IMG/VR virus record: IMGVR_UViG_3300027804_000038
Span: 160,001 to 224,000 of that record
Direction: 5' to 3' (one strand)
From: a virus
Taxonomy: Duplodnaviria > Caudoviricetes
DNA length: 64,000 nucleotides
Every line of letters begins with the position of its first letter. The stretch's first letter is position 1. The translations under genes were made by a program, and so were the position numbers. Positions 35,629 through 62,626 of this stretch are shown in pieces. The notes below the pieces were generated by a model. The model worked only from the letters and a program-made list of their open reading frames with translations, ran no database searches and was not told where the DNA came from.

Positions 35629-36819
35629 ATGAGAAAAATTAATAATTTAGTAAATAAAATTTTATCTGAGTCTTTAACTAAAAAGGCTAGTGAAATTACT
35701 GAGAAAATAAAAAATAAGTTAAAATATAATGAGTTTGACTATGTTGCCGAAACTGAAATGAATGAAAAGTGGAAAGGTGATGTTGAGGTTGAAAAAACTG
35801 GAGAATATTCTGACATGAGTATTTCTGAAATTAACTCAGAAATTAAAAAATTAAAATCTAAAACTGAAAAGTATAAAGAAGAAGGTAAAAAAGTCCCAAC
35901 CTCAATGAAAGAAAAAATGAGTGAACTTTATTTTGCTAAAAGAGCTAAACAAGGATGGAAAGGAAAGGGTAAAGCGGTTGTTGATGAGGAAGAAATGGAA
36001 GAAGGAAATGCTTTTACAGGAGCACTTGCAAAGGCAAAAGAAATGGGAAAAGATACTTTTGAAGTTGGAGGTAAAGAGTTTAAAGTACAAAAAGAATCAA
36101 TTGTCTACCAAGTGGAAATTGATGGTGAATTAATTAATTTATCTGAAAATGAAATGGTGGATATGATTGAGGATATTGTTTTAGAAGAAAAAATTAAGTC
36201 TAATATAAGAGGTACTGGTAAAGCTAAGGGAACTGTTGAGTACGATAGAGTACATAAAAAAGACGAGGATATTAATGAAAAAGCAATAAATGATGTTGCT
36301 AAAAAAATGGAGGAATACGTTAAACCTGGGTCTAAATCCAAATTTGACATGAATCCTAAAACTTTCCCAAAAGGTAATGGTGAATTAGGAGAAATGTCTA
36401 AAAAGGCATACCAAGCCTCAGATGCCGTTGAAGAGTATATCACCAATTTTGCATATGCTCCAGGTATGGAAAATTTGAAAACAGATGAAATTGATTACAA
36501 TGACGAGTGGGTTACAAAAAATATTGAAGGTTCTGAACTAACAGGTAATTCTCCAAAATACGCAAATGCTGTCGATACTGGATTTGGTAAAAAGATAAAC
36601 AAAAAGAGAAAAGAAAATTGGTATCAAAAAGAGTTAGACCAAAGTTATAATAGAGTTACCCAACCAGTAGACAACGCTGGAGATTCAAAAAAAGACGGTA
36701 AGTTAAAAAATATGTTTAAAAAATTGAAAGAATCTGAAAATGAAGAAACTGAAAATATCTTAAACGAAGAAATGGTTAAAATGAAACATCTTTTAACTTA
36801 CAATAAAAAAACACAATAA
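35629..36819 (+). CDS. K/E-rich late protein, possible internal head or core protein
   Basis: TATTTATA at 35607-14; leader MRKINNLVNKILSE; many xxE-bounded segments. Confidence 0.5.
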   Translation: MRKINNLVNKILSESLTKKASEITEKIKNKLKYNEFDYVAETEMNEKWKGDVEVEKTGEYSDMSISEINSEIKKLKSKTEKYKEEGKKVPTSMKEKMSELYFAKRAKQGWKGKGKAVVDEEEMEEGNAFTGALAKAKEMGKDTFEVGGKEFKVQKESIVYQVEIDGELINLSENEMVDMIEDIVLEEKIKSNIRGTGKAKGTVEYDRVHKKDEDINEKAINDVAKKMEEYVKPGSKSKFDMNPKTFPKGNGELGEMSKKAYQASDAVEEYITNFAYAPGMENLKTDEIDYNDEWVTKNIEGSELTGNSPKYANAVDTGFGKKINKKRKENWYQKELDQSYNRVTQPVDNAGDSKKDGKLKNMFKKLKESENEETENILNEEMVKMKHLLTYNKKTQ

Positions 36820-36867
36820 TTTACATATTAATTTTTATAGTTATAATTCTCCATATGAATAATACAT

Positions 36868-37344
36868 ATGGAGAATTTTTTTACATACATATCTAAACCT
36901 GTTGATAAGGAAGATGTTCAAATTTGGATTGAACGAAATAATATATGTTATGTTAAGTTCGAATTATTTCATGATTTTGTTAATTCTTTAATACATTTAA
37001 TTTATACAACATATCTTGGAAATAATGTTGATAAAAGCACCAACATATATTTTAGTGATGAGGACAATCTTAAACATTTTATTTGGTGTTGGCAAAAAGT
37101 AATAAGTAATTTTAAAAAAGAAGAAATTTATTTTGAAGAGGACGGAGAGCATCTCGAATTCTTCAAAGGGTTTATTGTCGACACATTCTATAAACAAAAA
37201 ATAAATGAGGTAAAGTATTCCTTAGACAGATTCTTCAACGAAATATTTAATCTTGACTCAATGTATACAATGTCTGATTTGGACTTATTAAAAACAGTAT
37301 ATAAAAGTTTAGATAAAAATTTAATGAATAATAATTTACATTGA
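36868..37344 (+). CDS. Hypothetical protein
   Basis: 158 aa; TTTACA-N16-TATAAT (36820-47) upstream. Confidence 0.65.
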   Translation: MENFFTYISKPVDKEDVQIWIERNNICYVKFELFHDFVNSLIHLIYTTYLGNNVDKSTNIYFSDEDNLKHFIWCWQKVISNFKKEEIYFEEDGEHLEFFKGFIVDTFYKQKINEVKYSLDRFFNEIFNLDSMYTMSDLDLLKTVYKSLDKNLMNNNLH

Positions 37345-37397
37345 TTAAAATAGAAATTATTTTTAATATTATAATAAACAATTTTTTTTAAACACAA

Positions 37398-37574
37398 ATG
37401 GAAACAATTGAAAAAATTAAAGAACTTACAGAAACAATTTCAGTTGACGCTGGTAAGTTTTATAAGGGTAACAAAAGTGCAGGTACAAGAGCTCGTAAGA
37501 CTGCTCAAGAATTGAAATCTTTGTTACAGACACTTAGAGTTGAAATTTTGAACGAATCTAAGAAAGATGCTTAA
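37398..37574 (+). CDS. Histone H1-like Hc1-family nucleoid protein (58 aa), not in the ORF track
   Basis: METIEKIKELTETISVDAGKFYKGNKSAGTRARKTAQELKSLLQTLRVEILNESKKDA; KGNKSAGTRARK matches the Bacteroidota Hc1-like KGNKAAGTRARK motif; TTGATT-N17-TAATAT upstream (37341-69). Confidence 0.8.
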   Translation: METIEKIKELTETISVDAGKFYKGNKSAGTRARKTAQELKSLLQTLRVEILNESKKDA

Positions 37575-37749
37575 TATAACAACTATATTTATTTTCTTAT
37601 TCGTTCTAAACATCTTTAATGTGTTGAACGTTTTTTTAAGATTTATAAGAGCTTTATTAAAACCTGAAAGATTTAGTATGGGAAAAATAGAGCTCTTATT
37701 TTTCTGGATATCATTATCATACATTATAACATTTATACTACAAAATTAA
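37567..37749 (+). CDS. Small two-helix membrane protein
   Basis: 60 aa with two hydrophobic stretches; overlaps both neighbours. Confidence 0.55.
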   Translation: MLNITTIFIFLFVLNIFNVLNVFLRFIRALLKPERFSMGKIELLFFWISLSYIITFILQN

Positions 37750-38189
37750 TGGGTTTATATAAAGAACTTTCACCAATTTCTAACTATCTTCATCAAATAA
37801 GAAAAATGGAAGATTATTTAGTCTTTGATATGCATTTTCCAAATACATGGAAGATATTAAAAAAATTTATTACTGAGGATAGATTTGTAAATCATGGACA
37901 AATTGAAACTGATAAAATGATGTTATCATTTGTTTCTGAAATTACAGATGAAAATTTAACATTAGTACATAGTAATATTTTAGGTATTATTAATTACAAT
38001 TTGGAAAGAGAAATGAAAGATAGGTTACTACAATCTAAGATAGATGAACTAAGAACAATTTTTGAAAAACAAACCTTAGATAATTTAAAGTCTCTTAAAT
38101 TTGATATAAAACCAACTTTAGAAATTAATTTAAATACAAATGGAAAATCAAAAAATGATGAATTGGTTAGAGAAAGCCAAGAAGAATGA
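37749..38189 (+). CDS. Hypothetical protein
   Basis: 146 aa ORF in the operon. Confidence 0.65.
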   Translation: MGLYKELSPISNYLHQIRKMEDYLVFDMHFPNTWKILKKFITEDRFVNHGQIETDKMMLSFVSEITDENLTLVHSNILGIINYNLEREMKDRLLQSKIDELRTIFEKQTLDNLKSLKFDIKPTLEINLNTNGKSKNDELVRESQEE

Positions 38190-38319
38190 TAGTATTGAAT
38201 TAGAAGCTGAAAAGAAAAAAATTGTACAACAAATTAAAGGATTAAGTAAGGAAGACGTAATCCCAAGACAAGTCAAATTAACATTATGGCAGAGAATAAA
38301 AAAAGCACTGAATTTCTAA
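38140..38319 (+). CDS. Small hypothetical protein (59 aa), not in the ORF track
   Basis: MENQKMMNWLEKAKKND...LTLWQRIKKALNF-stop bridges the gap between 38189 and 38286. Confidence 0.55.
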   Translation: MENQKMMNWLEKAKKNDSIELEAEKKKIVQQIKGLSKEDVIPRQVKLTLWQRIKKALNF

Positions 38320-38510
38320 GTAAATTAGCATTATTAACCGACGCAGCACAAGATTTGTGTAATGGTAAGGTTAGTATTATCTTTGAGTTGAATTTAGAAG
38401 ATTTCAGAAATATGTATTTAAAATTTGAAGATAAAGTGGACACAGAAAAAAAACAATTTAAAGTAGATATATCAGGTACCGATTTTATTTTTATTTTAGA
38501 TGAGTCGTAG
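38286..38510 (+). CDS. Hypothetical protein
   Basis: 74 aa ORF. Confidence 0.55.
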   Translation: MAENKKSTEFLSKLALLTDAAQDLCNGKVSIIFELNLEDFRNMYLKFEDKVDTEKKQFKVDISGTDFIFILDES

Positions 38511-39126
38511 TATTTCTATATAAGAAATCTTTATTATACCCATAATTTTCTAAAATCTGATACAGATATTTTTTTTGAGGACTTGAAAAATCTTTAACTA
38601 TTATAAAATTTTTCTTATCTGAATATTTTGGTAGTAAATCTAAAAGTCTATCACAGTCGTATTCATTTTTCAACGAGAAAAGAGTGTACACATCATCAAA
38701 TTGTATAACAAACTTATTATTAAGTTTTGATATCATATATATTTTATTTTCATTTAAGTAAGATTTTAATAAATCATCAAAAGATATCCTCTTATTTTTT
38801 TTTACGTCAAAAATCTTTTCTTCTTTATTATATATTGAAATCTTATTAAGATATAAGTTAGAATCTAATTTAGGGTTTATAATAATATTTCTACCAATTT
38901 CATCAGTATAATGTATTTGGTCTTGTTTCCAGTTACTAGATACTAAACCTATTTTATACTGACATTTAATTCCATTTTCATATTGGATGTTAAATTTTAC
39001 GTTTTCAGATTCTTTTATTTTTTTATTAAAAAATTCATTTGCATTATTTTCAGTTATGAAAGTTTTAAGAACCTTTCTTTTTTTATTATTTTTGAATATT
39101 ATTACATAGAAATTTGATTCTTTCAT
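38491..39126 (-). CDS. Hypothetical protein
   Basis: 211 aa K/N-rich ORF, divergent from dnaJ. Confidence 0.6.
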   Translation of the reverse strand: MKESNFYVIIFKNNKKRKVLKTFITENNANEFFNKKIKESENVKFNIQYENGIKCQYKIGLVSSNWKQDQIHYTDEIGRNIIINPKLDSNLYLNKISIYNKEEKIFDVKKNKRISFDDLLKSYLNENKIYMISKLNNKFVIQFDDVYTLFSLKNEYDCDRLLDLLPKYSDKKNFIIVKDFSSPQKKYLYQILENYGYNKDFLYRNTTTHLK

Positions 39127-39164
39127 AATTTTAATTTTAATAAAATTTTTAAAAAGATATAGAG

Positions 39165-40088
39165 TTGGAAAACTATTATGATATTTTAGGAGTCGCGGAA
39201 ACCGCTACACAAGATGAAATTAAAAAGGCTTACAGACAAAAGTCAAAAGAACATCATCCTGATAAGGGAGGTAACGAGGAAACTTTTAAAAAGATAAATG
39301 AGGCGTATACTACTTTGGGTGACGATAATAAAAAAGTCCAGTATGATAACCAAAGAAAGAACCCATTTGGTAATAATCCTTTCGGTGATATATTTGGAGA
39401 TTTTTTTGGAGGTTTTGGAGGACAACAAGTTAAAAGGGCTCCTGATAAGATTATAAATGTACAAGTAGGTGCCGTAGATTCTTATTTAGGTAAAGAAATA
39501 AATATATTTTTTAACAGGAAAAATAATTGTCAACCTTGTAATGGACAAGGAGGAACTAGAAATACTTGTAAAAAATGTAATGGTAGCGGATTTATTACAC
39601 AAAGAGTTGGTAATGCGTTTTTCTCTAACATTATACAAACTCATTGTAATGAGTGTAATGGTAAAGGTTATAGTCTAACTAATGTTTGTCAATCATGTTT
39701 AGGAGAGGGAAGAATCGACGAAACAAAATCAGTCTCAGTTAATCTCCCAAAAGGAATATCTGACGGGCAGTTAATAAAGGCTGGGGGAATGGGTGATTAC
39801 TCTAACGGTATGTTTGGTGATGTTATATTTAAAATTAATATTATACCACAAGCGGGATTTGAAAAATCAGGTTCCGACTTAGTTTATAATAAATTTATGT
39901 CATTAGATGATTTTACTAAAGAAAAAATCCAAATTCCACATCCATCAGGTGATTTAAATTTAACATTACCTGACGACATAGACACAAGTAAACCACTTAA
40001 AGTAAAAGGTAAGGGTTACCAAAATGAAAATGGTGATTTATATGTTAGAATGTATGTTAGACATAGAAAAAATAAGTTAGATTATTGA
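39165..40088 (+). CDS. dnaJ: DnaJ (Hsp40) co-chaperone
   Basis: J-domain YYDILGV...HHPDK, short G/F region, four CxxCxGxG repeats and a C-terminal domain (GD(V/L)); TTG start. Confidence 0.92.
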   Translation: MENYYDILGVAETATQDEIKKAYRQKSKEHHPDKGGNEETFKKINEAYTTLGDDNKKVQYDNQRKNPFGNNPFGDIFGDFFGGFGGQQVKRAPDKIINVQVGAVDSYLGKEINIFFNRKNNCQPCNGQGGTRNTCKKCNGSGFITQRVGNAFFSNIIQTHCNECNGKGYSLTNVCQSCLGEGRIDETKSVSVNLPKGISDGQLIKAGGMGDYSNGMFGDVIFKINIIPQAGFEKSGSDLVYNKFMSLDDFTKEKIQIPHPSGDLNLTLPDDIDTSKPLKVKGKGYQNENGDLYVRMYVRHRKNKLDY

Positions 40089-40955
40089 ACTAACTAACTT
40101 ATCAACATCAAACATTTCGGAAATTGACATATAAGGACACTCGTGGTTTATTCCCTCAAATGAGTAGTCAAATAAATATGAATCTATCAATTTTACTGTG
40201 TCTGAAGGTAAATTAGCAACAATGTTATTGTGTAAATCGTAACCAAAATTTTTGGGTGAAGTACCAATCCAAATTACGTTAGACTTTAGACCAAGAGCTG
40301 ACGATGCATGTTGTAAACATGAATCAATTAGGATTCTTTTATCTGACACTAAAAGAATTGAGAATAAATCATTAGATGATAACTCATCATTAACAACCTC
40401 AACACCACTGAGTTGTCTAGAAGATGGTTTACAAATTTGAATTATATGGTGAGTCCTTTCAAATTTTTTAACCAAAGACTGAGATACGTCAAAAGGAATA
40501 TCTCTAGTCCATGAATATGGTTGTTTTGAATTAAAGGCACCTCCATTAGTTTGTATAACTAAAATAGGTTTTTCTCTGTACCATTTATTAGATGACCTTT
40601 TTTGTGGTAAATTTAAGTTAAGTACTGGAGTTTGATTTTTATAATCAATACCTAACAAATCAGCCCAATTTTCAATTAGATGGGATTTTTTATGAATATG
40701 ATTTGATTGATAATATGGTTCATGTCTGAAAATTATGGTGTCCTTATCTTTTATATAATCATCATAAAAATATTGAGTGTTACCTAATTTATAAACTCTA
40801 TATATCGAATCATTATTTAAAAATACTTCAGGATATGATGCAACGACTACTATTTTTCTATCTGAATATTTTTCTTTAAGTGAAGATAGTAATGAAGTTG
40901 CCGCAATATTTTTTCCTAAACCACCCTGTATGTGCCAAACTATATATTTTTCCAT
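40077..40955 (-). CDS. GT9-like (heptosyltransferase fold) glycosyltransferase
   Basis: IQGGLGKNIAATSLLSSLKEKY at the N-terminus and ILIDSCLQHASSALG near the C-terminus, resembling the GT9 GLGD and DSG..H.A.ALG motifs. Confidence 0.7.
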   Translation of the reverse strand: MEKYIVWHIQGGLGKNIAATSLLSSLKEKYSDRKIVVVASYPEVFLNNDSIYRVYKLGNTQYFYDDYIKDKDTIIFRHEPYYQSNHIHKKSHLIENWADLLGIDYKNQTPVLNLNLPQKRSSNKWYREKPILVIQTNGGAFNSKQPYSWTRDIPFDVSQSLVKKFERTHHIIQICKPSSRQLSGVEVVNDELSSNDLFSILLVSDKRILIDSCLQHASSALGLKSNVIWIGTSPKNFGYDLHNNIVANLPSDTVKLIDSYLFDYSFEGINHECPYMSISEMFDVDKLVSSII

Positions 40956-41398
40956 TATTTTTTTGTCCCAATTCTTATAAATTTATACCAAACACGCTCA
41001 TGAATAAAGTAAACTATAGGTTTAAATAACAATTCACCAATACCAATTAGAGATGATAGTTCTAATGAAATACCTAAAGAAAAAGCTGAACCAACTGTTA
41101 TTAAAGTACCTAATATACGATAAGAAATTGTTTTTAAAATGTGTCTTGTAAGTACCGATTCTTCTTTAATTGTAGTTATATAGGCTACAGTATTTTTTAA
41201 TTCACATACTCCTTTACAGCTAATATGCCACTTAAATTCATTTAATTCGGGAACCCAATCCTTAGTTGTATAAGTATGACCATCAACAATTATATCGGAA
41301 ACTAAAATTTCATTACCGTTTTCAATTAGTCTCCATCTCTCACATTCATTTGTTGAGTTAGTATTGTATCTTATTTGAAAAGTTTTTATATTCTTCAT
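40955..41398 (-). CDS. Two-domain protein with a C-terminal DUF2061-like membrane domain
   Basis: RHILKTISYRILGTLIT...KPIVYFIHERVWYK matches the DUF2061 pattern. Confidence 0.7.
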   Translation of the reverse strand: MKNIKTFQIRYNTNSTNECERWRLIENGNEILVSDIIVDGHTYTTKDWVPELNEFKWHISCKGVCELKNTVAYITTIKEESVLTRHILKTISYRILGTLITVGSAFSLGISLELSSLIGIGELLFKPIVYFIHERVWYKFIRIGTKK

Positions 41399-41793
41399 AA
41401 TTTACCTTCAAGCCTCATTTGTTCCCTTATTTTAGTTGCAGAAATGTCGTGTATTTCTTGTGGAGGGATTCTTTCAATAATATCATATCCAACACCTCTA
41501 CCAAATTCTATTGAACATATATCAGGTATAACCATCACTTTAACCCTATCACTCAATTCTGAATAGTGTAACTCAATATTACTTTTAACTTCTTGTGCGG
41601 TAAATGGATTTTTTTCATCTGGCTCAATATCTCTAATACAAATTAGAACATTCTTACCTTCATCCATAGCTTGTTTAAATAGCTCCTGGTGTCCTTTATG
41701 TAGAGGTTGCCACCTACCAACAAACATTGCAAATTGACCATCTTTTGATTTTAAAGAGGATTGAACGTGAAGTTTTTTATCCCAATTACTCAT
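41395..41793 (-). CDS. HxGH-superfamily nucleotidyltransferase (cytidyltransferase/NadM-like)
   Basis: FVGRWQPLHKGH and ISATKIR motifs; 4-nt overlaps with cysC and the DUF2061 gene. Confidence 0.8.
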   Translation of the reverse strand: MSNWDKKLHVQSSLKSKDGQFAMFVGRWQPLHKGHQELFKQAMDEGKNVLICIRDIEPDEKNPFTAQEVKSNIELHYSELSDRVKVMVIPDICSIEFGRGVGYDIIERIPPQEIHDISATKIREQMRLEGKL

Positions 41794-42218
41794 TTTCTAT
41801 TAAAAGGTATTAAATTAAGACATTCGTCTATAGTTTTATTTGTTGTATCGATATTAATAAAGTCTTCAGTTGGTTGTTCATATTCCTTAACAAAATTATG
41901 TTCTCTACCCCTGATTTCACTTGTGTGAACATATATTTCACAAACTTCATTAGTTTCCTTTAATGAGTTTCTCATTTTTTTATAAGGAGCAACAACAGAA
42001 ATAACAACAGTAAATCCCTTGTGGTCTAAAAATCTAGCTAAATCTAATACAGATTGGATATTTTTAATTCTACCTTCTGAAGAATAATCAAAGTTTTGAA
42101 ATAGTTCTCTCAAACCATCTCCATCAACATTAATACAATTATCTGAACACTTCTCAATTAAAGCGTTTGCTAATGTTGTTTTTCCTGCACCAGGTTGACC
42201 TGTAAACCAATAAATCAT
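41790..42218 (-). CDS. cysC: Adenylyl-sulfate (APS) kinase, compact form
   Basis: IYWFTGQPGAGKTTLA P-loop, DGDGLR, GRIKNI, VISVVAPY, EIYV and YEQP. Confidence 0.8.
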   Translation of the reverse strand: MIYWFTGQPGAGKTTLANALIEKCSDNCINVDGDGLRELFQNFDYSSEGRIKNIQSVLDLARFLDHKGFTVVISVVAPYKKMRNSLKETNEVCEIYVHTSEIRGREHNFVKEYEQPTEDFINIDTTNKTIDECLNLIPFNRK

Positions 42219-42478
42219 TGTGATATGTAGTTTTTACCCGATTGAATTGAATCGTTAATATCCTGTAGTTGGTTTTGAGTTAATCCTGACATAAACCAAT
42301 CTTTATTTTTCATCAATTCTAAATGTTTATAGTTTCTTTCTACAGTATTTTTTTTTGTGTCAATATCGTCATTAATAAGTTTAGACCCATCGATTATACC
42401 ATTTATTAGGTTCACTGAGTCAAATGCTGAATTAATTGACCTTGCAACATTTGGAACTCTTTCTTTTTCGTTATCCAT
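42215..42478 (-). CDS. Hypothetical helical protein, possible fibre-associated chaperone
   Basis: 87 aa; the DSVNLIN...RNYKHLELM..KDW pattern recalls small ORFs found beside phage fibre genes (recollection, not a search). Confidence 0.45.
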   Translation of the reverse strand: MDNEKERVPNVARSINSAFDSVNLINGIIDGSKLINDDIDTKKNTVERNYKHLELMKNKDWFMSGLTQNQLQDINDSIQSGKNYISQ

Positions 42479-42484
42479 ATTATT

Positions 42485-43300
42485 TTATTTATAGTTAAAT
42501 TTATTAAAAAACCAATTATAATGATTATATAATCTATTACAATTTTCAATACCTAATATCTCATTATAATCTTCTTTTTGAGGAGAAAGAGTATTTTTAA
42601 TGGTATGGTCACCAAAAATACCATGGATTACATCATTTTCATGAGTTAATTGTTCTATTCTCTCAAAATCATGTTGATATGGAGGTATTTCTAAATAATT
42701 ATAAATTCGTTTTAGTTCTAATTCAGGATTTGAAGTTAAATCTTCAAATCGGATAAATAAAATATCTTTATCGTATCCTTGGTGAATTGATTCATATAAC
42801 CATTCTAAAGATGGACCAATTGGCGGAGATATCGAAAAGTGGTCAATTCTTGAATTAGTTGTCATATTTTTCAGCTCAGAAACATTTACTAAAAGAGGGT
42901 CCTTATGTGAGTTCTTTCTATAGTTTTTTTCCATTGAAGAAAAAATAGACCTAAGGTCTCTAACCATACAGATAATTTTTGGAGTACCGTAAAACCATTT
43001 TAAGAAATGGTAGTTACCAATCCAAGCTCTACTCTTATCAATAACATAAGGTCTTTCAGTAATACCATCAAAAAAACCATTTAAACCTTTTTCACAAAAA
43101 CTTCTTAATCCCTCTTTCATTTCATCAGGATTTTGAGCTTTAAATGCGTCTCCTGTTGAATATATTGTTCTGGCTTGTAAAATTAATTCTATAACACCTG
43201 ATGTTGGTGTAGAATATATGTCAGGATTTTGCATTAATATATTTTGAATTAATGTCGAGCCCGCTCTAGGTAAAGAGGCATTAAAAAATATTTTCTTCAT
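42485..43300 (-). CDS. PAPS-dependent sulfotransferase (Sulfotransfer_3-like)
   Basis: 5'-PSB loop SLPRAGSTL, 3'-PB motif RDLRSIFSS, and IRFEDL. Confidence 0.85.
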   Translation of the reverse strand: MKKIFFNASLPRAGSTLIQNILMQNPDIYSTPTSGVIELILQARTIYSTGDAFKAQNPDEMKEGLRSFCEKGLNGFFDGITERPYVIDKSRAWIGNYHFLKWFYGTPKIICMVRDLRSIFSSMEKNYRKNSHKDPLLVNVSELKNMTTNSRIDHFSISPPIGPSLEWLYESIHQGYDKDILFIRFEDLTSNPELELKRIYNYLEIPPYQHDFERIEQLTHENDVIHGIFGDHTIKNTLSPQKEDYNEILGIENCNRLYNHYNWFFNKFNYK

Positions 43301-43337
43301 GGGTTAATTTTAACCTATAAAGTTATAAATGTCAAAG

Positions 43338-44855: not shown

Positions 44856-44864
44856 ATCTTTTCG

Positions 44865-46768: not shown

Positions 46769-46792
46769 GCTTTAATTTTACAATTTTTTGGT

Positions 46793-46804: not shown

Positions 46805-46806
46805 GT

Positions 46807-47136: not shown

Positions 47137-47155
47137 TAGATATTTATAATTGATT

Positions 47156-47782: not shown

Positions 47783-47842
47783 ATAAAAAAATTACTAAAT
47801 AAATTATTAGGTGTAAAGTTTAATAGAATAATATTTATAATT

Positions 47843-48244
47843 ATGAAATTAATATATTCTTTAAGTTCTTTAATAACTGAAAAAAAAATTGGTGAACTAC
47901 AAGATACTGTATATATAAATTATGTATTACAACATACACCAAGTAGTAAACACGGAATTTTCAGAAAAAAAAGACACGAGAAAGAAGACGGAGGAGAAAG
48001 AATTACCGATTATCATATATTAGAGTTATGTAAAAAGGCAAAAACTAACATAACCCAATATATTGTTATGGGTGAAATAATTGACGGAGTTAGATTTATA
48101 GTATCATCTAAAGAATTTCCTTTTTTAAATATTGTAATTAACCCACAAGAAAACTCACCATTTGATTGGACATTAACAGTTGTTACTGTAATGAACAAAG
48201 AAGATTTTAATATTGGTAGAAATCAATTACAAATTTTCATATAA
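47843..48244 (+). CDS. Hypothetical late protein
   Basis: TATTTATA at 47832-39; ATG at 47843 (MKLIYSLSSLITE), which the track extends to a TTG at 47768. Confidence 0.6.
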   Translation: MKLIYSLSSLITEKKIGELQDTVYINYVLQHTPSSKHGIFRKKRHEKEDGGERITDYHILELCKKAKTNITQYIVMGEIIDGVRFIVSSKEFPFLNIVINPQENSPFDWTLTVVTVMNKEDFNIGRNQLQIFI

Positions 48245-49462: not shown

Positions 49463-49490
49463 TATATTTATATAAAAAAATATTTTTAAA

Positions 49491-50843
49491 ATGAAATTTA
49501 CCACCTTATTAAAATCAGTAATTCTTGAGAATTCAAGATTTAAAATATTGTACGATAATTTAGTCCCTAAAAAAGAAGAAAAAGGTAAAAAATCTGACCC
49601 AAAGAAACTACCTTTTGATATTCTTAAAAAGATAATTGCTGCTGACCCAGATTCAAAATTTCCACAAGGATTTGATTTTGACACCGCAACTCCTGAAGAT
49701 ATGGAGAAAGGTAAAGTTGGTAAATATACTAATTGGTTAATTAAAAACTTTATGAAACCATCTGCAAGTTCTATAGATGCTGACCCTTCAGATGAGAGAG
49801 CTTATGGAATTGCGGTTAAAAACTATAAAGATTTATTTTTAGAAGACTTATATAAAACTACTAATGACCTTAAAAAGTTTGAGAGATTTAAAAACCAATT
49901 ATCTGCGGATAAAAGAGATATTATGAAGTTATCACCAAGTGAACTATTTGACTTGGTAAAAGACTTTTCATTGGAAAAAACTAAGGCTACAAAATCTGAA
50001 AAAGAGACTGCTAAAAAGACTTATGAACATCCAGGTGGTAAAGTTGCCTTTAGAGGCCCTAATTGGACTGTAATTAAAATTGAAGGTACTGGTGAACTAC
50101 AAAAAGATGCTGCTTGTTTTTATGGAGGTTCTCATGAATATGATAAAGGTGAATCTAGATGGTGTACATCTTCACCTGGTATGTCCTATTGGAAAAATTA
50201 TTTGAGTAGAGGCCCATTATATGTAATATTACCTAATGAATCTTCTGATGTGGGTAAAGTATCTGGATTACCAGTTGAAAGATACCAATTCCAATTCCCT
50301 GATGCTCAATTTATGGACAGACATGACCGACAAATTGATTTAGTTGGAATGTTAAATGGTAAACTATCTGAAGTTAAGGAGTATTTTAAACCTGAATTCG
50401 CAAAGGGACTTATGAAGTCTAATGAGAATAAGGCGGTAATCACCTATCCTGATAGTGCATCAGGTAAATTTGTTGCATTATACGGATTCGAGGAATTATT
50501 CAACTCATTCCCTGAAAGTTTAGAAAGTTTAGTAATTGAAAATAAATCCAGAGATAACGTTGCTTTAGATGTACCATCTAGTATTGGTAAATTTAAAAAT
50601 TTAACAACATTAATGTTACAAAATATTGTAAGAACATTACCTGAAGAAATTGGACAACTTACAAAATTAGACTTTTTATCACTACCTGATAATAAAGAAT
50701 TAAAAGAATTACCTAATAGTATCGTTAATTTAGATAATATGACTTTTATAAATCTTAGAGGTAGTAACCCTGATATCAAAATACCTGAAGGAATCACTGA
50801 AAAATATGAAGATTTAGGTGGCGGATTTTGGTATACTGCGTAA
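49491..50843 (+). CDS. Protein with C-terminal leucine-rich repeats
   Basis: SIGKFKNLTTLML...LPEEIGQLTKLDFLSLPDNKELKELPNSIVNLDNMTFINLRGSN; central WCTS motif; TATTTATA at 49465-72. Confidence 0.75.
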   Translation: MKFTTLLKSVILENSRFKILYDNLVPKKEEKGKKSDPKKLPFDILKKIIAADPDSKFPQGFDFDTATPEDMEKGKVGKYTNWLIKNFMKPSASSIDADPSDERAYGIAVKNYKDLFLEDLYKTTNDLKKFERFKNQLSADKRDIMKLSPSELFDLVKDFSLEKTKATKSEKETAKKTYEHPGGKVAFRGPNWTVIKIEGTGELQKDAACFYGGSHEYDKGESRWCTSSPGMSYWKNYLSRGPLYVILPNESSDVGKVSGLPVERYQFQFPDAQFMDRHDRQIDLVGMLNGKLSEVKEYFKPEFAKGLMKSNENKAVITYPDSASGKFVALYGFEELFNSFPESLESLVIENKSRDNVALDVPSSIGKFKNLTTLMLQNIVRTLPEEIGQLTKLDFLSLPDNKELKELPNSIVNLDNMTFINLRGSNPDIKIPEGITEKYEDLGGGFWYTA

Positions 50844-52817: not shown

Positions 52818-52818
52818 A

Positions 52819-53142: not shown

Positions 53143-53437
53143 AGTATCACCTGAAGAATTAAAAGAAAAAATTCAAAATAAAGAGACCATGATGGTTGAT
53201 TTTTACGCAACTTGGTGTATTCCATGTGGCAGACTTATTGAAGAACTTAATGACATTGACACAGAGGTTCCAGTATATAAGATAAACGTTGAGGATGACG
53301 TTGAGTTTTCAAAATCCTTAGGGATTAGGTCTGTACCCACCGTAAAAATATTCAAAGAGGGTCAACCAATATCAACAATGGTTGGATTTAAACCAAAAAG
53401 TGAGATAAAAAATATTTTATCTGAAAGTTTATCATGA
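53135..53437 (+). CDS. Thioredoxin
   Basis: VDFYATWCIPC, KINVED and GIRSVPT...FKEG. Confidence 0.85.
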   Translation: MIEVSPEELKEKIQNKETMMVDFYATWCIPCGRLIEELNDIDTEVPVYKINVEDDVEFSKSLGIRSVPTVKIFKEGQPISTMVGFKPKSEIKNILSESLS

Positions 53438-53703
53438 ATAAGTTAGTGGTATATACAATGAAAGGTTGTCCTCATTGTGATGACTTTAAAAAAATGTTAA
53501 AAAATGAAAAAATAAAATTTACGAATAGAGATGTTGAAAAACATTCTGATGAGTATGAGTTATTTGTTAGTGTAACTAATGATTTTGTTCCAGCATTTAT
53601 GATTATTAATATGGAGGAACCAAATAAATCTGAATTATTTGCACCTGATTTACATTTTAATGATTTAGAAGAAGGTTTGAAAATTATTAAAGAAAAATTA
53701 TAA
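53434..53703 (+). CDS. Glutaredoxin/thioredoxin-like protein
   Basis: VYTMKGCPHC and cis-Pro motif FVPAF. Confidence 0.8.
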   Translation: MNKLVVYTMKGCPHCDDFKKMLKNEKIKFTNRDVEKHSDEYELFVSVTNDFVPAFMIINMEEPNKSELFAPDLHFNDLEEGLKIIKEKL

Positions 53704-54231
53704 ATGAGAGAATTAACATTTAGAAAAAAAGGGGTGGTCCACACCCCTTTGGTTTATTGGGAAATTGATAAAAATAATAAAATAGCGATATATCAGGGAG
53801 GTAGAGGTGCTCGTCCTGATTTGGACTTCATTGTTAAACATAAACAAGAAGGTAAAAAATTAAGAACACCGTCACATACTCATTGGATTGTAGATTTAAT
53901 TGCTAAAGCTCAATACGATAAAGGTAGAGTTAAATCCTATGTTGAGGATATGATACAAATGTATGACGAGTGTGAACCATTTAAGGACGAAGAAGAGAGA
54001 AACAATTACAAGTTACAATGCCCTACCAAGTATTGGATGAAACACATTATGCTTGAAGATAAAGGATATTATCCGATACAAGTATTGACAGCCTTTATTG
54101 AATTATTTTCTAAATGTGAAAAACAAACACCTGGAGCATTTATGTTTAGAAACCTACTAACATTAGTTAAGGATTATTGTGAAGGTAAGAAAGATTTTTA
54201 TCAGGTCGTAGGGTACTCTAAAAGAGTTTAA
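53704..54231 (+). CDS. Hypothetical protein
   Basis: 175 aa ORF convergent with the next gene. Confidence 0.65.
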   Translation: MRELTFRKKGVVHTPLVYWEIDKNNKIAIYQGGRGARPDLDFIVKHKQEGKKLRTPSHTHWIVDLIAKAQYDKGRVKSYVEDMIQMYDECEPFKDEEERNNYKLQCPTKYWMKHIMLEDKGYYPIQVLTAFIELFSKCEKQTPGAFMFRNLLTLVKDYCEGKKDFYQVVGYSKRV

Positions 54232-54935
54232 ATTACCTGAAAAAAACTGTTTTCTTTAATTTTTAACCATGGTCTATAATTTTGGTCTATTAAATAATAT
54301 TTCATGAAATCATGAGATTTAATAATCTCGTTAATTTCTAATACATCCATTTCAAAATTATCCATAATGATTGATTTAAGTTTTGATGATGGATATATTG
54401 AATCGGAAATAATGTTAATAATATTAATCGTACCGTTATTGTGCTCCTCGATTTCGAATTCAATAAAATTATAATTAAAATGGTTTTGTATATTGTATGC
54501 AATCATTTCCAAGTATAGGTATAAATTTTTTAAATAATATTTTGAATACCCAAACGGAAATTTAGAATTGACGGATGATTCGTAAGATATATAATTAGAT
54601 TTATTTACATACTGAAAATCTTTATTAAATCTAATTTTAATTTTTTTTTCTTTAAGTTTACTTTTATCAAAATAAGAAATTAAGTCTAAAGTGTTAATAT
54701 TCTCAATATTCATAAAATTAAATTCAGACTTATACTTAGAAATAAACTGATTAACTAATTCTTGAGATGTTAATACGTTTGGAGATTCGGTAATACCCTT
54801 TAAAATAATTAAAGATTCAAAATCAGATACTCCTATAACTGTATTGAATTTCCCATTTTCACTTATTTTCTCACATAAAAATTCAGAAAAAAGATTACAA
54901 AATCCCTGTCTACTATCAATTAAAAAACTATTCAT
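54228..54935 (-). CDS. Hypothetical protein with weak MetK (SAM synthetase)-like features
   Basis: ATG at 54935 after a TATTTATA motif (plus-strand 54964-71); CNLFSEFL...IILKGIT...PFGYS loosely parallels MetK CDQISDAI...VAGEIT...MFGYA. Confidence 0.35.
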   Translation of the reverse strand: MNSFLIDSRQGFCNLFSEFLCEKISENGKFNTVIGVSDFESLIILKGITESPNVLTSQELVNQFISKYKSEFNFMNIENINTLDLISYFDKSKLKEKKIKIRFNKDFQYVNKSNYISYESSVNSKFPFGYSKYYLKNLYLYLEMIAYNIQNHFNYNFIEFEIEEHNNGTINIINIISDSIYPSSKLKSIIMDNFEMDVLEINEIIKSHDFMKYYLIDQNYRPWLKIKENSFFQVI

Positions 54936-54976
54936 ATACAAATTTAAAAACAAAAAAAAACAGTATAAATAGTAAT

Positions 54977-56380
54977 TTAAAAATAATCTCCTATTGAATA
55001 ATTAATACAATTATCGACCTGACTTGAGTTAGGGTAATCGTCTAATCTTGGTACTCTTAATGATTCACGAGCTCCATCATCTATTAAATCTTTTAGTAAT
55101 CTACCGTAACTACCAAAATACTCAATTGTATCACAATGAATTCCATCACAATCCTTGTTTTCAGTTAACCATTCCGAAACAACTTCATATACACATTTTG
55201 TGGCTTTGTATCTTGTTCCGTAAAATGTTTTAGATACTTGTTTACCTTCTTTATCCCAAACTTGTTTTTTGTATGAATACTCATCTCGTTTGTTGTCATC
55301 AATTACAAAACCAACTAGTTCAGACATTAAACTATCATACCATTCATCAGTTAATGTTCCTTCATAACAACCGTGATAGATATCATATAAATCACTTCGT
55401 ATATCATCTAATTCCTTATTAATTAGGTACTCAATAGTATCATCATCACCAAGTATACGAGAGATGACCTCATCAGTTAATTCAACATCATCACGACCTT
55501 GTTCCTGAGCAATTTCTTCAAGTAATTCAGTATCGGTACCGATTGTTTTCATATCTTTAAGTTCAGATGTAATTCTTTCATTAACCAATTTTTTATTTTC
55601 ATTAGTTAACTCATCATATACGTCTCTATAAACATCATCAGTCACATCCCAAAAACTCACATCATACTCACCATTTAAAATACTCTCAATTGAATCACTA
55701 CTAATTTCATTACGATATGACGTATTGAAAAACCCTGAAAGTTCACCTGAAGATGTGTCAAAATAATAATCACTTCCTATTTTTATAATATCTGAAAGAT
55801 ATTCATCAACTATTCTCCAAACAAAAGAACTATCATTTTCATAAAACGCATAAAATAATCGATTTTGGTAATCTTCATATATTGGATTAAATGGGTCTAT
55901 CCTATTTAATAAACCTTTTTTACTTAAAATTTCGAAATAATTTTCGATACCACCAAAAAACTTATCAAAAAATTCAATACCTTCATCATCCTCTAATTTC
56001 TTTATAATTTTTAAAAATTTTTCATCTTTTTCTGACAAGTTTTCTTCATTTTGTTCTTTTATATTTTTCTTTTTTAAAAATTTGAGTAATGGTTTTTCAT
56101 CTGTAACGTCTGCTCGACTAGATAATTTTGAAAATTCATCACTCTTTTTCTTATAGTCCCAGTGGTCAGGTAAATCTTCAGAATCAATGACTTTATCATA
56201 AACAACATCATCACTTAATGGAACCAAGTCCAATTCTGGATGAGCAATATATATACCTTTATTACCCCAATCCCAAACTCTTGTTGGTTTATTTAATAAC
56301 TTTCTAAAATGTTTATTAGAAAAAAAGTTATCTTGGTTATAACCTCTAATAATTATGTAATCACCTGTCTGTAAAGTCAT
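54977..56380 (-). CDS. Acidic hypothetical protein (467 aa)
   Basis: D/E-rich ORF; TATTTAT 4 nt upstream of the ATG. Confidence 0.65.
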   Translation of the reverse strand: MTLQTGDYIIIRGYNQDNFFSNKHFRKLLNKPTRVWDWGNKGIYIAHPELDLVPLSDDVVYDKVIDSEDLPDHWDYKKKSDEFSKLSSRADVTDEKPLLKFLKKKNIKEQNEENLSEKDEKFLKIIKKLEDDEGIEFFDKFFGGIENYFEILSKKGLLNRIDPFNPIYEDYQNRLFYAFYENDSSFVWRIVDEYLSDIIKIGSDYYFDTSSGELSGFFNTSYRNEISSDSIESILNGEYDVSFWDVTDDVYRDVYDELTNENKKLVNERITSELKDMKTIGTDTELLEEIAQEQGRDDVELTDEVISRILGDDDTIEYLINKELDDIRSDLYDIYHGCYEGTLTDEWYDSLMSELVGFVIDDNKRDEYSYKKQVWDKEGKQVSKTFYGTRYKATKCVYEVVSEWLTENKDCDGIHCDTIEYFGSYGRLLKDLIDDGARESLRVPRLDDYPNSSQVDNCINYSIGDYF

Positions 56381-56392
56381 ATTAATAAATAT

Positions 56393-56419
56393 AAAAAAAG
56401 GGGAAAATAACTTCCCCTT
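56393..56419 (-). terminator. Rho-independent terminator
   Basis: Perfect 8-bp stem AAGGGGAA/TTCCCCTT with a U tract on the minus strand. Confidence 0.8.
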
Positions 56420-56451
56420 GTAATCTAGATTAATTTTTTGGTTTTATTGGA

Positions 56452-56490
56452 TTATTTTCCACATCCGCAACCACCACCACCGTTTTTCAT
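56452..56490 (-). CDS. Candidate 12-aa micropeptide MKNGGGGCGCGK
   Basis: ATG to TAA, with its own TATTTATA motif (plus-strand 56520-27) upstream and a terminator downstream. Confidence 0.45.
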   Translation of the reverse strand: MKNGGGGCGCGK

Positions 56491-56530
56491 AGCGCTATTT
56501 TTTTTAATGGTTTATTACTTATAAATATTT

Positions 56531-56656
56531 TTATTTTTTGTTTTTGTTGTAGTATTTCTCAATAACCTTTTTAACAGAGTCTTGTGAAGATGTATTCTTT
56601 TGAGGTAAAGGTTGTTGATTTGACTGATTTTGCTTATTTTTACATGAACACCCCAT
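56531..56656 (-). CDS. 41-aa protein with an N-terminal CxC motif
   Basis: MGCSCKNKQNQSNQQPLPQKNTSSQDSVKKVIEKYYNKNKK-stop; TATTTATA (plus-strand 56684-91) upstream. Confidence 0.6.
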   Translation of the reverse strand: MGCSCKNKQNQSNQQPLPQKNTSSQDSVKKVIEKYYNKNKK

Positions 56657-56753
56657 AATATTAGAATATTAATTTTTATTATATATAAATATTTCACTAA
56701 GATATTAAAAGGAAATAGTAAGTGGATTTATATATTTATAAATAAAAACAATA

Positions 56754-58094
56754 ATGAATTATCATTTAAAGAAAATTTTAAAATCTATTATAAGTGAACA
56801 GGATGAAAATGAATACATTTTTATCCAACCACAAGAACTTATTGATATGTTAAAATTCGTATCCTATGACGTTAATGCTTTAAGTAAGTTAAAAAAATAC
56901 AGAAACAAAAATATAGTAGTTCAAGGAAACTTGAATCTAAGCGGATTACCAATTAAGTCATTGAGTCCAATTAAAAAAATAGAGGGAAGACTTGATATTT
57001 CAAATACAAAAGTATCTAGTATAGATGGTATTGAAGTTACAGGGTATGTGACAGATTATGGGACACCAATTGAGTCTAAACGAAAGGCTAAAATTAGAGC
57101 GGAGAAAATTTCAGGAGCTAACGCAAGAAGAGAAGACAATGAATGGGATTTAGAAGTTTACAATGACGAAGAAAGTTTATATGCAAATGTTTTGTTTGAT
57201 TATCTAGAATCGGATATTGATGAAATTGTTAGACCTAAAAATTATTCTGAATTATTGAGTAATTTACAGACTAAAAGAAGTAATTTAGAATATGACCAAG
57301 AACAATTAGAAGATGTTAATAGTAGTGAATACAACGAGATACAAGAAAAAATTGATGAAATAGACACTGAAATTGAAGAATTGGAAGATAGTGTAGATGT
57401 GTATTTTTTAATACCCAGTAAATACACGCATTACGGGTTAACAGTATTTGAAGTATTAATACCATCAAAAGAAGGAGAAGAATATACTGTTGGTACTGAA
57501 AGAGATATGGACAATGCTATTAGGGATTATCAAGAAGAATATTTTAATGAACATGGTGTTAATGGTTACCGAAGAGACTTTTGGTTAAATTATATCGATT
57601 TAGATAGGATTTATGATGATGCATTAGAAGTTTATGAGAGTGATGTTAGAGACAATCCTGATTCATATTTGAGTGATAGTGATAAAGAATTGAGTCAAGA
57701 ACAATTAGATGAGATTAAAAAATTGGAAGAGGAAAAAGATGAACTTGAATCACAACTTCATGACTTGGAACCTGGGGATGATGAGTATGATAATATTGGA
57801 GATAGAATTAATGAAATAGATATTGAAATAGGTGAAATTGAAGATTCTCCAGATGGCGAATATAATGATAGTGCGATAGAAGAGAAGGCCGAAGAACTTG
57901 CAAGTTATTACAGAGATAATCCCGAAGAATTTGCTGGAAACATGGGATATGATTTGTCAGAATACATTGACAAAGAAGAATTAATAGAGGCTTCAATTTC
58001 TGAGGATGGGTATGGTAACATGAATCATTATGATAATGATTATGATAGTTTTGAATTTAATGGTGAAACTTATTATATAATGAGAATAACATGA
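56754..58094 (+). CDS. Highly acidic protein with a short LRR-like N-terminal repeat and coiled coils
   Basis: VQGNLNLSGLPIKSL..IKKIEGRLDISNTKVSSI; D/E-rich helical hairpins; TATTTATAAATA at 56733-44; leader MNYHLKKILKSIISE. Confidence 0.6.
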   Translation: MNYHLKKILKSIISEQDENEYIFIQPQELIDMLKFVSYDVNALSKLKKYRNKNIVVQGNLNLSGLPIKSLSPIKKIEGRLDISNTKVSSIDGIEVTGYVTDYGTPIESKRKAKIRAEKISGANARREDNEWDLEVYNDEESLYANVLFDYLESDIDEIVRPKNYSELLSNLQTKRSNLEYDQEQLEDVNSSEYNEIQEKIDEIDTEIEELEDSVDVYFLIPSKYTHYGLTVFEVLIPSKEGEEYTVGTERDMDNAIRDYQEEYFNEHGVNGYRRDFWLNYIDLDRIYDDALEVYESDVRDNPDSYLSDSDKELSQEQLDEIKKLEEEKDELESQLHDLEPGDDEYDNIGDRINEIDIEIGEIEDSPDGEYNDSAIEEKAEELASYYRDNPEEFAGNMGYDLSEYIDKEELIEASISEDGYGNMNHYDNDYDSFEFNGETYYIMRIT

Positions 58095-60806: not shown

Positions 60807-60821
60807 CCTCCATTTTTTTTT
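60794..60821 (+). terminator. Rho-independent terminator
   Basis: TGGAGGT-AATTA-ACCTCCA followed by a T run; overlaps the methyltransferase stop. Confidence 0.8.
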
Positions 60822-60851
60822 AATATGATGGTATTTATTAAATAAAAGTTT

Positions 60852-61226
60852 ATGATGGATAATTCAGAAATAATTAAAAAATTAGTAGAATCACAAATAC
60901 AACTAAAATTCTTACACTGGCAAACAAAATCTTATGCTAAACACAAAGCTTATGGTGAGTTATATGAAAGTTTAGGAGAATTAATTGATGATTTTGTTGA
61001 GGCTTGTATGGGTAAACACGGAAGACCATCATACGAAGGTGGATATACCATACAGGGACAAGACATTTCTGAAATATCTGTTCAAAATTTTATCGACGGA
61101 GTTTGTATTTTCTTAATACAATTAACTGAAGTATTTGACCCACAAGAGGATTCAGACCTTTTAAATTTGAGAGATGAAATGTTACATGGGTTCAATAAAT
61201 TAAAGTATCTCCTAACATTAGAATGA
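60852..61226 (+). CDS. Ferritin/Dps-like four-helix protein (DUF5856-like)
   Basis: LHWQTKSYAKHKAYGELY...IDDFVE; TATTTAT at 60832-38. Confidence 0.7.
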   Translation: MMDNSEIIKKLVESQIQLKFLHWQTKSYAKHKAYGELYESLGELIDDFVEACMGKHGRPSYEGGYTIQGQDISEISVQNFIDGVCIFLIQLTEVFDPQEDSDLLNLRDEMLHGFNKLKYLLTLE

Positions 61227-62626
61227 GAAAAATTATATCTGAATCAGGTATTAGAAATATAAGAGAGCTTTCTAACAGATATAAGAAGGCTAAAATTTAT
61301 TTTCACCAAGACCTAGATGGTGTCACTACCGCAATAGCCATGAGGGACTATTTAAAGTCAAACGGAATTGACGTGGTTGACGTGGAAGTTATTCAATATG
61401 GAGATAAGGAGTTCGCGGTTAAAAAAACTGATGCTAGAGGTGAAGTTATGCCAGTTTTAGTTGATTTTGCACATGGTAAACCAATGTTTATTATTCACAC
61501 TGACCATCATGATAGACAAGCTGGTGCGGAAGAAACTGGCTCAAAATCATTTAGACAAGCAAGGTCAAACGTTGAAACCTTGTCTCAAATAATACCCAAA
61601 AGTGACTTATTTCCACCTGAAGATGTTGCCACAATATCTATGGTTGATAGTGCTGATTATGCTAAAAGAAATATTACACCTGAGATTGTAATGAATTATA
61701 TCTTTAAATTTGATAAAGATAAATCTGCGGCTGATAATAGAATGATGTTAGGATTGGTTACTAATAAATTACTTTTGGCATTTAAAAACAAAAAAGGATT
61801 TTTAGAAGAATTAGTTATGGAGTGTGAACCTTCATTAATTTCATTATTTAGAAAAATTAAAGAAATAATGAATTTAAAAGGATTTCCTTCAGAAGATGTT
61901 TTAGAAAAAAACAAAGAAATTTATGTTTCTTCCATGAAAACACATCCTCAGGTTTCTGGTAATATCATTGTTCAGTATGGAGGTGGTAATATGATGAAAC
62001 CTGGTTCGTATGATAGATATACACCATTTAGAAATAATCCTGAAGCTGATTTCTTGGTAATCGCTTGGCCTCTTGGTTTGTTACAAGCCTCTTGTAATCC
62101 ATTTAAAAAAGAAAGAGAACTTAAAGGTGTTAACCTTGGTGAAATAGCTCAAGAAGTTTTATCTAAATGGGAATCACAATTAAAAGAAAAACAAATACCT
62201 TTGTCAACTATAAAGTGGGTTTCTGAGACTGCAACTAATGAAGAATCTGTTGGGTTCACATTCAAGGATTTTGCGGCAATTTATGGTGAAAAATATGTGA
62301 AAGATAAAGACGGTATTAAAAGTTTGATGGATATTAAATCTTTAATGGAAAAAAAATCATCAGATTTAACTGAAGATGAATGGACTGTTCTTGACCAATA
62401 CACGGTTCCTGTTTGGGATGTTATTCAGGCTAATTCTGGAGGACACAAATGTATTACCAATATTTCAGGACTTAATTACATTGGTAGGAGTAAAAGACCA
62501 CCAAAGGGTGGATATAGGTATGATGCGGAAAAAGAGGATTCTCCGTATATTAAATTTTTAAAAATGTTACAAAGAGACTTTGTTAAAAACCTTCAAGAAA
62601 AGATTGAATTATCAAAGAATCAGTAA
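61223..62626 (+). CDS. DHH-family phosphoesterase
   Basis: YFHQDLDG, VLVDF, TDHHD and a C-terminal SGGHK (DHHA1-like). Confidence 0.7.
   Translation: MRKIISESGIRNIRELSNRYKKAKIYFHQDLDGVTTAIAMRDYLKSNGIDVVDVEVIQYGDKEFAVKKTDARGEVMPVLVDFAHGKPMFIIHTDHHDRQAGAEETGSKSFRQARSNVETLSQIIPKSDLFPPEDVATISMVDSADYAKRNITPEIVMNYIFKFDKDKSAADNRMMLGLVTNKLLLAFKNKKGFLEELVMECEPSLISLFRKIKEIMNLKGFPSEDVLEKNKEIYVSSMKTHPQVSGNIIVQYGGGNMMKPGSYDRYTPFRNNPEADFLVIAWPLGLLQASCNPFKKERELKGVNLGEIAQEVLSKWESQLKEKQIPLSTIKWVSETATNEESVGFTFKDFAAIYGEKYVKDKDGIKSLMDIKSLMEKKSSDLTEDEWTVLDQYTVPVWDVIQANSGGHKCITNISGLNYIGRSKRPPKGGYRYDAEKEDSPYIKFLKMLQRDFVKNLQEKIELSKNQ

Follow-up and report, generated by a model that had tools for sequence, protein, structure and literature searches.

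Introduction

The internal proteins of bacteriophage T4 carry a capsid targeting sequence (CTS) that was reportedly described by Mullaney and Black in 1996. Here, we analyze short N-terminal leader peptides, termed tags below, that are shared by otherwise unrelated genes in a 64,000-nucleotide (nt) stretch of viral DNA (the window), which corresponds to bases 160001–224000 of an IMG/VR record (IMGVR_UViG_3300027804_000038) of 293,850 bp that is rated complete. Our analysis suggests that some 40 of the late genes of this phage, three or four of five genes singled out in the window among them, begin with short helical tags whose ends match the cut site of the head protease, and that their products are probably packaged in the head and processed there.

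In T4, the CTS of IPI, IPII and IPIII and the N-terminal propeptides of Alt, gp24 and gp68 are cut by gp21 (PMC9026906, PMC3012670, PMC5694885). Residues 4 and 7 of the CTS govern targeting, residues 8 and 10 govern processing, and an Asp at position 10 blocks cutting (PMC9026906). The tags described here resemble the CTS in being short, in standing at the N-termini of otherwise unrelated, fast-evolving proteins and in ending with (L/I)-x-E. As in T4, one module encodes a protease of the gp21 family, a scaffold-like acidic protein and a capsid protein of the gp23 type, and expression appears to be late, here as judged from an upstream motif. In contrast to T4, several tag families are present (of 7 residues, of 13–17 residues and a composite form of 23–30 residues), none of them with sequence homology to the CTS; about 40 genes per genome are tagged, compared with fewer than 10 in T4; the cargo includes lysozymes, an M23 peptidase, a PPK2 polyphosphate kinase and LRR-like proteins; the host belongs to the Bacteroidota; and the system is known from sequence alone.

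Among T-even phages, polymorphic ip loci were identified through a leader that they have in common (Repoila et al. 1994, as cited in PMC12373910), and T4 Ip1-3 inhibit GmrSD type IV restriction (PMC12373910). The genes described here are likewise diverse accessory genes that are recognized only by a common N-terminal signal and lie in variable regions, mostly at 1–45 and 280–294 kb of the record; however, an anti-restriction function has been shown for T4 Ip1-3, whereas the present genes are read from their sequences. The heads of phiKZ-like giant phages hold about 50 proteins, from which N-terminal propeptides thought to serve targeting are removed after Glu, as is also predicted for the present tags. 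Their proteases, such as SPN3US gp245 and phiKZ gp175, recognize an A/S/G-x-E motif (PMC5694885, PMC10052503). Unlike the system described here, phiKZ-like phages use an S80 protease and a small P3 residue, their propeptides often exceed 100 residues, and they lack a short portable tag common to many proteins. Encapsulin cargo-loading peptides also send unrelated cargo inside an HK97-fold shell by means of a short terminal peptide, yet these peptides are usually C-terminal and uncleaved, and neither a protease nor a DNA-filled capsid is involved. The concept is known from T-even phages; a literature search yielded no published description of so expanded a tag repertoire outside T-even phages, nor of one in this phage group.

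Results

N-terminal tags ending in Glu across the genome

Genes were called on the whole record, whose G+C content is about 30%, by a simple longest-open-reading-frame (ORF) script (n = 400). A preliminary description of the window had quoted the N-termini of five genes, which start at positions 35629, 47843, 49491, 56754 and 61223 (genes in the window are named by these start positions, and positions on the whole record are marked as genome positions). All five N-termini are exact on translation, and the shared leader that they were taken to represent is indeed a genome-wide pattern; the five cases are only a small part of it, as it extends to about 40 genes, mostly outside the window, and includes longer leaders. 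The (I/L)xE ending that had been offered as the defining rule fares less well, being enriched only 1.5–1.9-fold, with about half of the loose matches arising by chance.

An ending composed of two hydrophobic residues, Ser or Thr, and Glu is found 31 times within the first 20 residues of the 400 gene products, 5.1 times the internal rate, and the matches peak sharply at Glu7. In the same gene set, neither the pattern with Asp at its end (0.76–0.77-fold) nor its reverse reading (1.4-fold) is enriched. A scan of the last position (P1) identifies Glu as the enriched residue; Phe is also raised, which we tentatively attribute to hydrophobic starts that look like signal peptides. At P2, Thr is enriched 9.8-fold and Leu, Lys and Ser are enriched as well, P3 favors Ile, Leu or Met, and Ser, Glu, Gln and Asn are enriched directly after the Glu.

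Two tag types were defined: type A consists of Met, one to six residues and hydrophobic-hydrophobic-T/S-E, and type B consists of two hydrophobic, two polar and two hydrophobic residues, any residue and E, within the first 30 residues. Type A opens 22 genes where 2.2 would be expected, and type B opens 16 where 0.5 would be, with only 4 copies in 77,212 internal positions; the two types together make up 38 tagged genes. Their Glu positions peak at residue 7 and at residues 13–22, and the composite form reaches 22–30 residues. This composite leader, MKK-V-V-R-LTESDL-x-R-IVKRVI-x-E (22–28 residues), combines both parts and is found in eight proteins. In the regions flanking the capsid genes of relatives (573 genes), 26 type B matches are present where 1.2 would be expected. 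The hydrophobic moment of type B leaders is 0.73, compared with a background of 0.29, a difference that is partly circular, since an amphipathic helix is built into the definition of the pattern. In the eight long leaders, identical residues share a codon in 141 of 254 cases, where 127 are predicted from genome usage. Because synonymous codons are near neutral, the conservation of the leader is at the peptide level and reflects neither recent copying nor an RNA element. Outside the window, seven paralogues of about 100 amino acids (aa) at genome positions 1186–3547, 285715–286032 and 292395–292715 start with MKYLITESQ(I/L)D..(I/V)FKYLD and constitute the largest single block of type A tags.

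Portability of the leaders

With the N-terminal 40 residues of one small tagged protein as query, at least 436 metagenomic proteins were retrieved at E ≤ 0.1; these have an almost invariant 23-residue leader in common and then diverge completely, LysM-containing, membrane-anchored and Cys-rich proteins being among the downstream parts. Leaders are also exchanged between orthologues. In the product of genome 73672–74199, encoded two genes from the capsid gene, the mature start RYMFFSNLEQM is conserved in 18 relatives and is preceded by a type B leader of 13–17 residues or by a composite leader of 24–30 residues; the Glu is invariant in this family, and an indel hot spot lies directly behind it. 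Interchangeable tag versions before a fixed mature start are seen among the orthologues of three families. The leader had been said to stand on otherwise unrelated proteins, and it is in fact portable across unrelated and orthologous proteins alike. One metagenomic protein (P0005, 218 aa) contains two copies of the full long leader, one at residue 1 and the other at about residue 132, and looks like two fused tagged genes or a polyprotein with an internal cut site.

Association of the tags with a putative late promoter motif

TATTTAT(A) is the most enriched upstream 8-mer (15-fold) and lies within 60 nt of 103 of the 400 gene starts. Its distance to the ATG shows two sharp peaks, at 11–13 and 20–23 nt, which would imply very short or near-absent 5′ leaders and perhaps two promoter-start geometries. 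The motif is found ahead of the terminase, protease and scaffold genes and of operons with PHROG "virion structural" and tail-spike matches, and because it precedes such genes we read it as a putative late promoter. TATTTAT stands within 45 nt of 26 of the 38 tagged genes but of only 70 of the 362 others (odds ratio 9.0, p = 1e-9), whereas the Bacteroidota-type motif TAnnTTTG, presumably early, precedes 2 of the 38 tagged genes and 49 of the 362 others. The tags are therefore tied to TATTTAT and not enriched behind TAnnTTTG; the leader is not equally common in early genes, an outcome that would have spoken against the idea of packaged cargo. The description of the first four window genes as lying behind TATTTAT holds, and 61223, which had been placed downstream in a TATTTAT operon, has no motif of its own and belongs here via the operon of 60852–61226 (Table 1).

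A sigma factor gene at 31260..32078 (+) (phrog_351, E = 1.2e-53) has neither promoter motif upstream and is a candidate reader of TATTTAT. Its start, MSILSEE, matches the regular expression and was rejected as a tag, given the sigma factor assignment and the lack of the late motif. Sigma-70-type genes are also present amid tagged small genes in relatives.

Head genes and agreement with the head-protease rule

A gp21-like protease had been expected elsewhere in the genome, and the prohead protease gene is present at genome 66961–67680 (Pfam Peptidase_S77, PF03420, T4 gp21 family; 88 bits). Next to it, genome 68007–69461 encodes a protein of 484 aa whose middle part is very acidic and whose C-terminus is helical and conserved; it had no match in Pfam and, by its position, acidity and helical C-terminus, is a candidate scaffold protein. 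A gene for a major capsid protein of the gp23 type comes next, at genome 69498–71327 (PF07068, 207 bits), and a T4-type large terminase is also encoded in the record. The closest cultured capsid proteins are 31–45% identical and belong to Flavobacterium phage immuto (the nearest cultured relative by this protein, about 41% identity), Microcystis phage Mel-JY01 and Rhodothermus phage RM378; capsid proteins that are 72–86% identical are found on at least 597 viral contigs. A nucleotide search with window positions 35000–50000 returned no match among cultured phages. The record represents a distant T4-like jumbo phage that is uncultured and of lake origin.

In 80 relatives, the first 60 residues of the capsid protein are nearly invariant up to ...QLYENQAS(H/F/Y)LINE and are followed by a variable A/S-rich stretch. 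A partial alignment to mature T4 gp23 projects the T4 cut near this LINE, and L-I-N-E is thus the predicted maturation site. The protease keeps GIL(I/V)E near its own N-terminus, and the N-terminus of T4 gp21 has LIE-9 (PMC9026906). T4 Alt is cut at ITE-6 and LTE-619 (PMC5694885); the (L/I)-T-E of these sites is also the commonest ending of the tags described here, the commonest short tag ending in L-I-T-E. MKTYQEFIAE is encoded twice in the T4 record, in ipII and ipIII, and in an alignment anchored at the Glu, the conserved hydrophobic residues of type B coincide with CTS residues 4, 7 and 8 before Glu10. Only this hydrophobic spacing before the Glu is common to both: there is no sequence kinship with the T4 CTS, and the type B pattern matches nothing in T4. 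The match in spacing is best taken as a likeness of design, not as homology.

As a benchmark, we applied these scripts to the T4 record (265 ORFs) with a relaxed pattern (a hydrophobic residue, any two residues, two hydrophobic residues, any residue and Glu, within the first 22 residues). This pattern gives 20 matches in T4 against 6.6 expected, and 52 against 14.3 expected in the phage analyzed here. The T4 matches include ipII, ipIII, gp24, gp68, alt and the alt.-1 duplicate, and IPI, gp67 and the long propeptides are missed. The relaxed pattern thus finds true CTS proteins, and a motif match is weak for any single gene. T4 gene 61.1 (NC_000866, 18966–19130), which adjoins the primase gene, encodes a hypothetical protein of 54 aa whose start, MKTFKEFIKE, is closely similar to the targeting sequence of ipII and ipIII.

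Cargo

Several tagged proteins can be named from Pfam: a PPK2 polyphosphate kinase (244 bits), preceded by an extension of 120 residues; an M23 peptidase; a protein of 298 aa in which a 150-residue extension precedes a T4-type lysozyme domain; and another protein with a weak tail-lysozyme match. The tagged 298-aa lysozyme coexists with a compact paralogue of 152 aa that has neither tag nor extension and is likely the endolysin; such a split between tagged and untagged copies is expected if the tagged copy is virion-borne. The other tagged genes are mostly small (median 146 aa) and without assigned function, and they are concentrated at 1–45 kb and 280–294 kb of the record. The called tail and baseplate genes have no tags. 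Outside the window, directly after the capsid gene and with a late motif, genome 71666–72313 encodes a very basic protein of 215 aa (mature isoelectric point (pI) 9.9) that starts with MSKKKLNSINDIVE-S and is a candidate DNA-binding internal protein like T4 IPII and IPIII.

The five genes of the window and their neighbors

Coordinates of the five genes, their leaders and the associated motifs are given in Table 1.

Table 1. Tagged and candidate genes of the window with their upstream motifs (window positions).
Feature	Position	Strand	Description
TATTTAT motif	35607..35613	+	22 nt before the ATG of 35629
Type B leader MRKINNLVNKILSE	35629..35670	+	core LVNKILSE; predicted cut after Glu14
Gene 35629	35629..36819	+	tagged cargo candidate, 396 aa; mature part pI 5.6
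TATTTAT motif	47832..47838	+	11 nt before the ATG of 47843
Gene 47843	47843..48244	+	133 aa, begins MKLIYSLSSLITE; weaker leader candidate, LITE core only
TATTTAT motif	49465..49471	+	26 nt before the ATG of 49491
Gene 49491	49491..50843	+	450 aa; type B leader MKFTTLLKSVILE (LLKSVILE); C-terminal LRR-like region
TATTTAT motif	56733..56739	+	21 nt before the ATG of 56754
Gene 56754	56754..58094	+	446-aa acidic protein, mature pI 4.1; type B leader MNYHLKKILKSIISE (ILKSIISE)
TATTTAT motif	60832-60838		20 nt upstream of gene 60852-61226
Dps-like gene	60852..61226	+	phrog_858, E = 2.6e-19; first gene of the operon with 61223
Gene 61223	61223..62626	+	467 aa, DHH-like clade core protein; starts MRKIISE (ambiguous type A match)

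The 56754 protein appears to be the best tag case. Its family comprises 210 homologues with 34–65% identity, as found by a protein database search; a pattern-based search of viral contigs for relatives returned none. Short or long leader versions stand before a conserved start, YYKISPE.Y in most orthologues and YIFIQPQEL here.

The family of 35629 has 385 representatives (50% clustering) in a library of 1.84 billion proteins and shares a conserved C-terminal part, residues 167–396. A leader of this kind opens 107 of the 148 members inspected, and the N-terminal halves otherwise differ in length by hundreds of residues. In the AlphaFold2 (AF2) model, a helix at residues 2–33 is followed by a disordered linker at residues 34–54 (mean predicted local distance difference test score (pLDDT) 69.7, predicted template modeling score (pTM) 0.27). 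No match was found in Pfam, a Foldseek search of the AF2 model against the Protein Data Bank (PDB) gave nothing at E ≤ 0.001, and Atlas look-ups returned virus clusters only, all without names. By the pattern of its leader, 35629 is a solid predicted member of type B.

The leader of 49491 is kept in six orthologues with 60–65% identity, in which the whole N-terminal region is equally conserved, and its assignment to the pattern is likewise solid. The protein had been labeled an LRR protein; its matches to LRR_14 (32.4 bits, cut-off 40) and LRR_13 (22.6 bits, cut-off 30.1) fall below threshold, and an LxxLxL repeat-like pattern is visible at columns 350–430 of the orthologue alignment. Ahead of this LRR-like tail, 49491 and the six orthologues contain an invariant central block, HPG...FRG..WTV.KIEG...LQKDAACFYGG...GESRWCTS...GPLYV.LPNES, which has no family assignment. 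The neighboring gene 51201–52817 gave a PcfJ-like match. By BLASTP, no mutual relation is detectable among the products of 49491, 51201 and 56754.

For 47843, the start used is an ATG that lies within a longer frame initiated by TTG (47768), picked because the promoter motif lies 11 nt ahead of it. The product has neither a Pfam nor a PHROG match, and its membership among the tagged proteins is plausible from its N-terminus.

The start of 61223 overlaps the stop of the preceding gene, such that the Dps-like and DHH-like genes (60852–62626) form an overlapping two-gene late operon. For the "DHH" label of 61223, the Pfam match (19.3 bits, residues 25–105) is below the cut-off of 28.1; some close homologues bear a precomputed PF01368 label, and no sequence match was found in the PDB. 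The protein has 4139 homologues and, with 67–81% identity, is about as conserved as the capsid protein. Within the Dps-like protein, IIKKLVES was rejected as a tag and is probably a helix of the Dps fold (phrog_858).

Within window positions 47001–57000, identical or near-identical contigs of a freshwater RNA (metatranscriptome) library of 2017 cover parts of 47348–52489, including 49491; such contigs cannot show transcript starts, may stem from DNA carry-over, and are uninformative on uncovered parts such as 47843–48244. A very close relative of the phage was present in this 2017 freshwater sample.

Discussion

The explanation that we consider rather probable is that the N-terminal tags represent an enlarged and diversified form of T4-like capsid-targeting propeptides, with the steps from docking through cleavage and retention to injection being ones that we infer. 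The tagged proteins would be made late in infection alongside the head proteins, their amphipathic N-terminal helix would dock them to the scaffold core of the prohead, the gp21-family protease would then cut after the Glu, and the mature proteins would be retained in the head and enter the cell with the DNA. Within the window, we hold this with good confidence for 35629, 49491 and 56754 and with moderate confidence for 47843, and regard it as doubtful for 61223. More tentatively, and with somewhat less than an even chance in our estimate, members of this clade may pack several dozen tagged proteins per virion type, including cell-wall hydrolases, a polyphosphate kinase, LRR-like proteins and many small proteins, by means of a modular two-part peptide code, in which an optional LTESDL-type module would precede an obligatory amphipathic module ending in Glu.

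Several observations weigh against capsid targeting. A tblastn search with a 25-residue query of the long leader found it in none of 50,697 cultured phage records, and the leader profile did not match Flavobacterium phage immuto. Of the 20 relaxed-pattern matches in T4, only about 5–6 correspond to known head proteins, and denV and 61.1 count as false positives. The roughly 40 different cargo proteins predicted here far outnumber the handful of T4, and there is no obvious reason for injecting PPK2 or a clade core DHH-like protein. The 35629 family is conserved past the Glu (E-x-L-E-E-K-A...), and the whole 30-residue helix may do more than a cleaved tag would. In 61223, MxK(L/I)(I/L)xE is conserved together with the next 25 residues, Glu7, G9, R11, I13 and L16 all being invariant. 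Because conservation spans the first 30 residues as a single block, MRKIISE is inseparable from the fold, and the status of 61223 as a tagged protein is ambiguous, with non-membership the better guess.

Some of these points would also suit portable address or interaction helices with a destination or purpose other than the capsid interior, which the head protease perhaps does not remove at all. Another part of the virion, a late replication or assembly compartment, oligomerization, or a prodomain that silences enzymes such as the lysozymes and the M23 peptidase are examples, which we jointly judge to be unlikely, although together they form the main rival to capsid targeting. Portability, late timing and peptide-level selection would suit any late-acting tag, the conserved helix of the 35629 family runs about 20 residues beyond the Glu, and several of the cargo proteins are cell-wall hydrolases that could need restraint until lysis. 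Such a purpose sits poorly with the specific requirement for Glu and not Asp, placed three residues behind a hydrophobic pair, which fits both the gp21 rule and the phage's own predicted capsid maturation site, with the indel hot spots directly after the Glu, with the availability of a leaderless lysozyme as endolysin, and with the absence of tags from the called tail and baseplate genes.

We find it improbable that the likeness of the five window genes is largely coincidence without shared function, although short K/I/L-rich N-terminal helices ending in Glu are common at 30% G+C, the loose (I/L)xE rule is only 1.5–1.9-fold enriched, the look-alikes in the sigma factor 31260 and the Dps-like 60852 are evidently native helices, and MRKIISE of 61223 lies within a block conserved as a whole. 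Three of the five genes fit the eight-residue type B, with its 16 N-terminal and 4 internal occurrences, the late motif immediately precedes four of them, and leaders belonging to this system are retained or exchanged among the orthologues of 56754 and 35629; for 35629, 49491 and 56754, coincidence thus appears largely refuted already. Least probable of all, in our view, is a signal in the nucleic acid, such as a translation start region or a recombination cassette linked to the late promoter. Shine-Dalgarno sites are lacking in the host group, the promoter motif is just 11–26 nt from the ATG, and conserved promoter-plus-leader cassettes could aid gene shuffling; yet codon choice at identical residues is near random, selectivity concerns residues (Glu versus Asp, and Thr at P2) and not bases, and leader variants of differing length keep the peptide pattern.

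Proteins that are injected with phage DNA act before phage gene expression and are therefore prime candidates for disarming host defenses. Should the tags function like those of T4, the injected proteins of a large group of uncultured freshwater phages would be listed by a simple rule applied to the sequence, and this list would comprise hundreds of unrelated families without assigned function. The injected proteome of thousands of environmental phages could then be readable from sequence, and the tags themselves would provide short, portable peptides with which foreign proteins could be loaded into large capsids.

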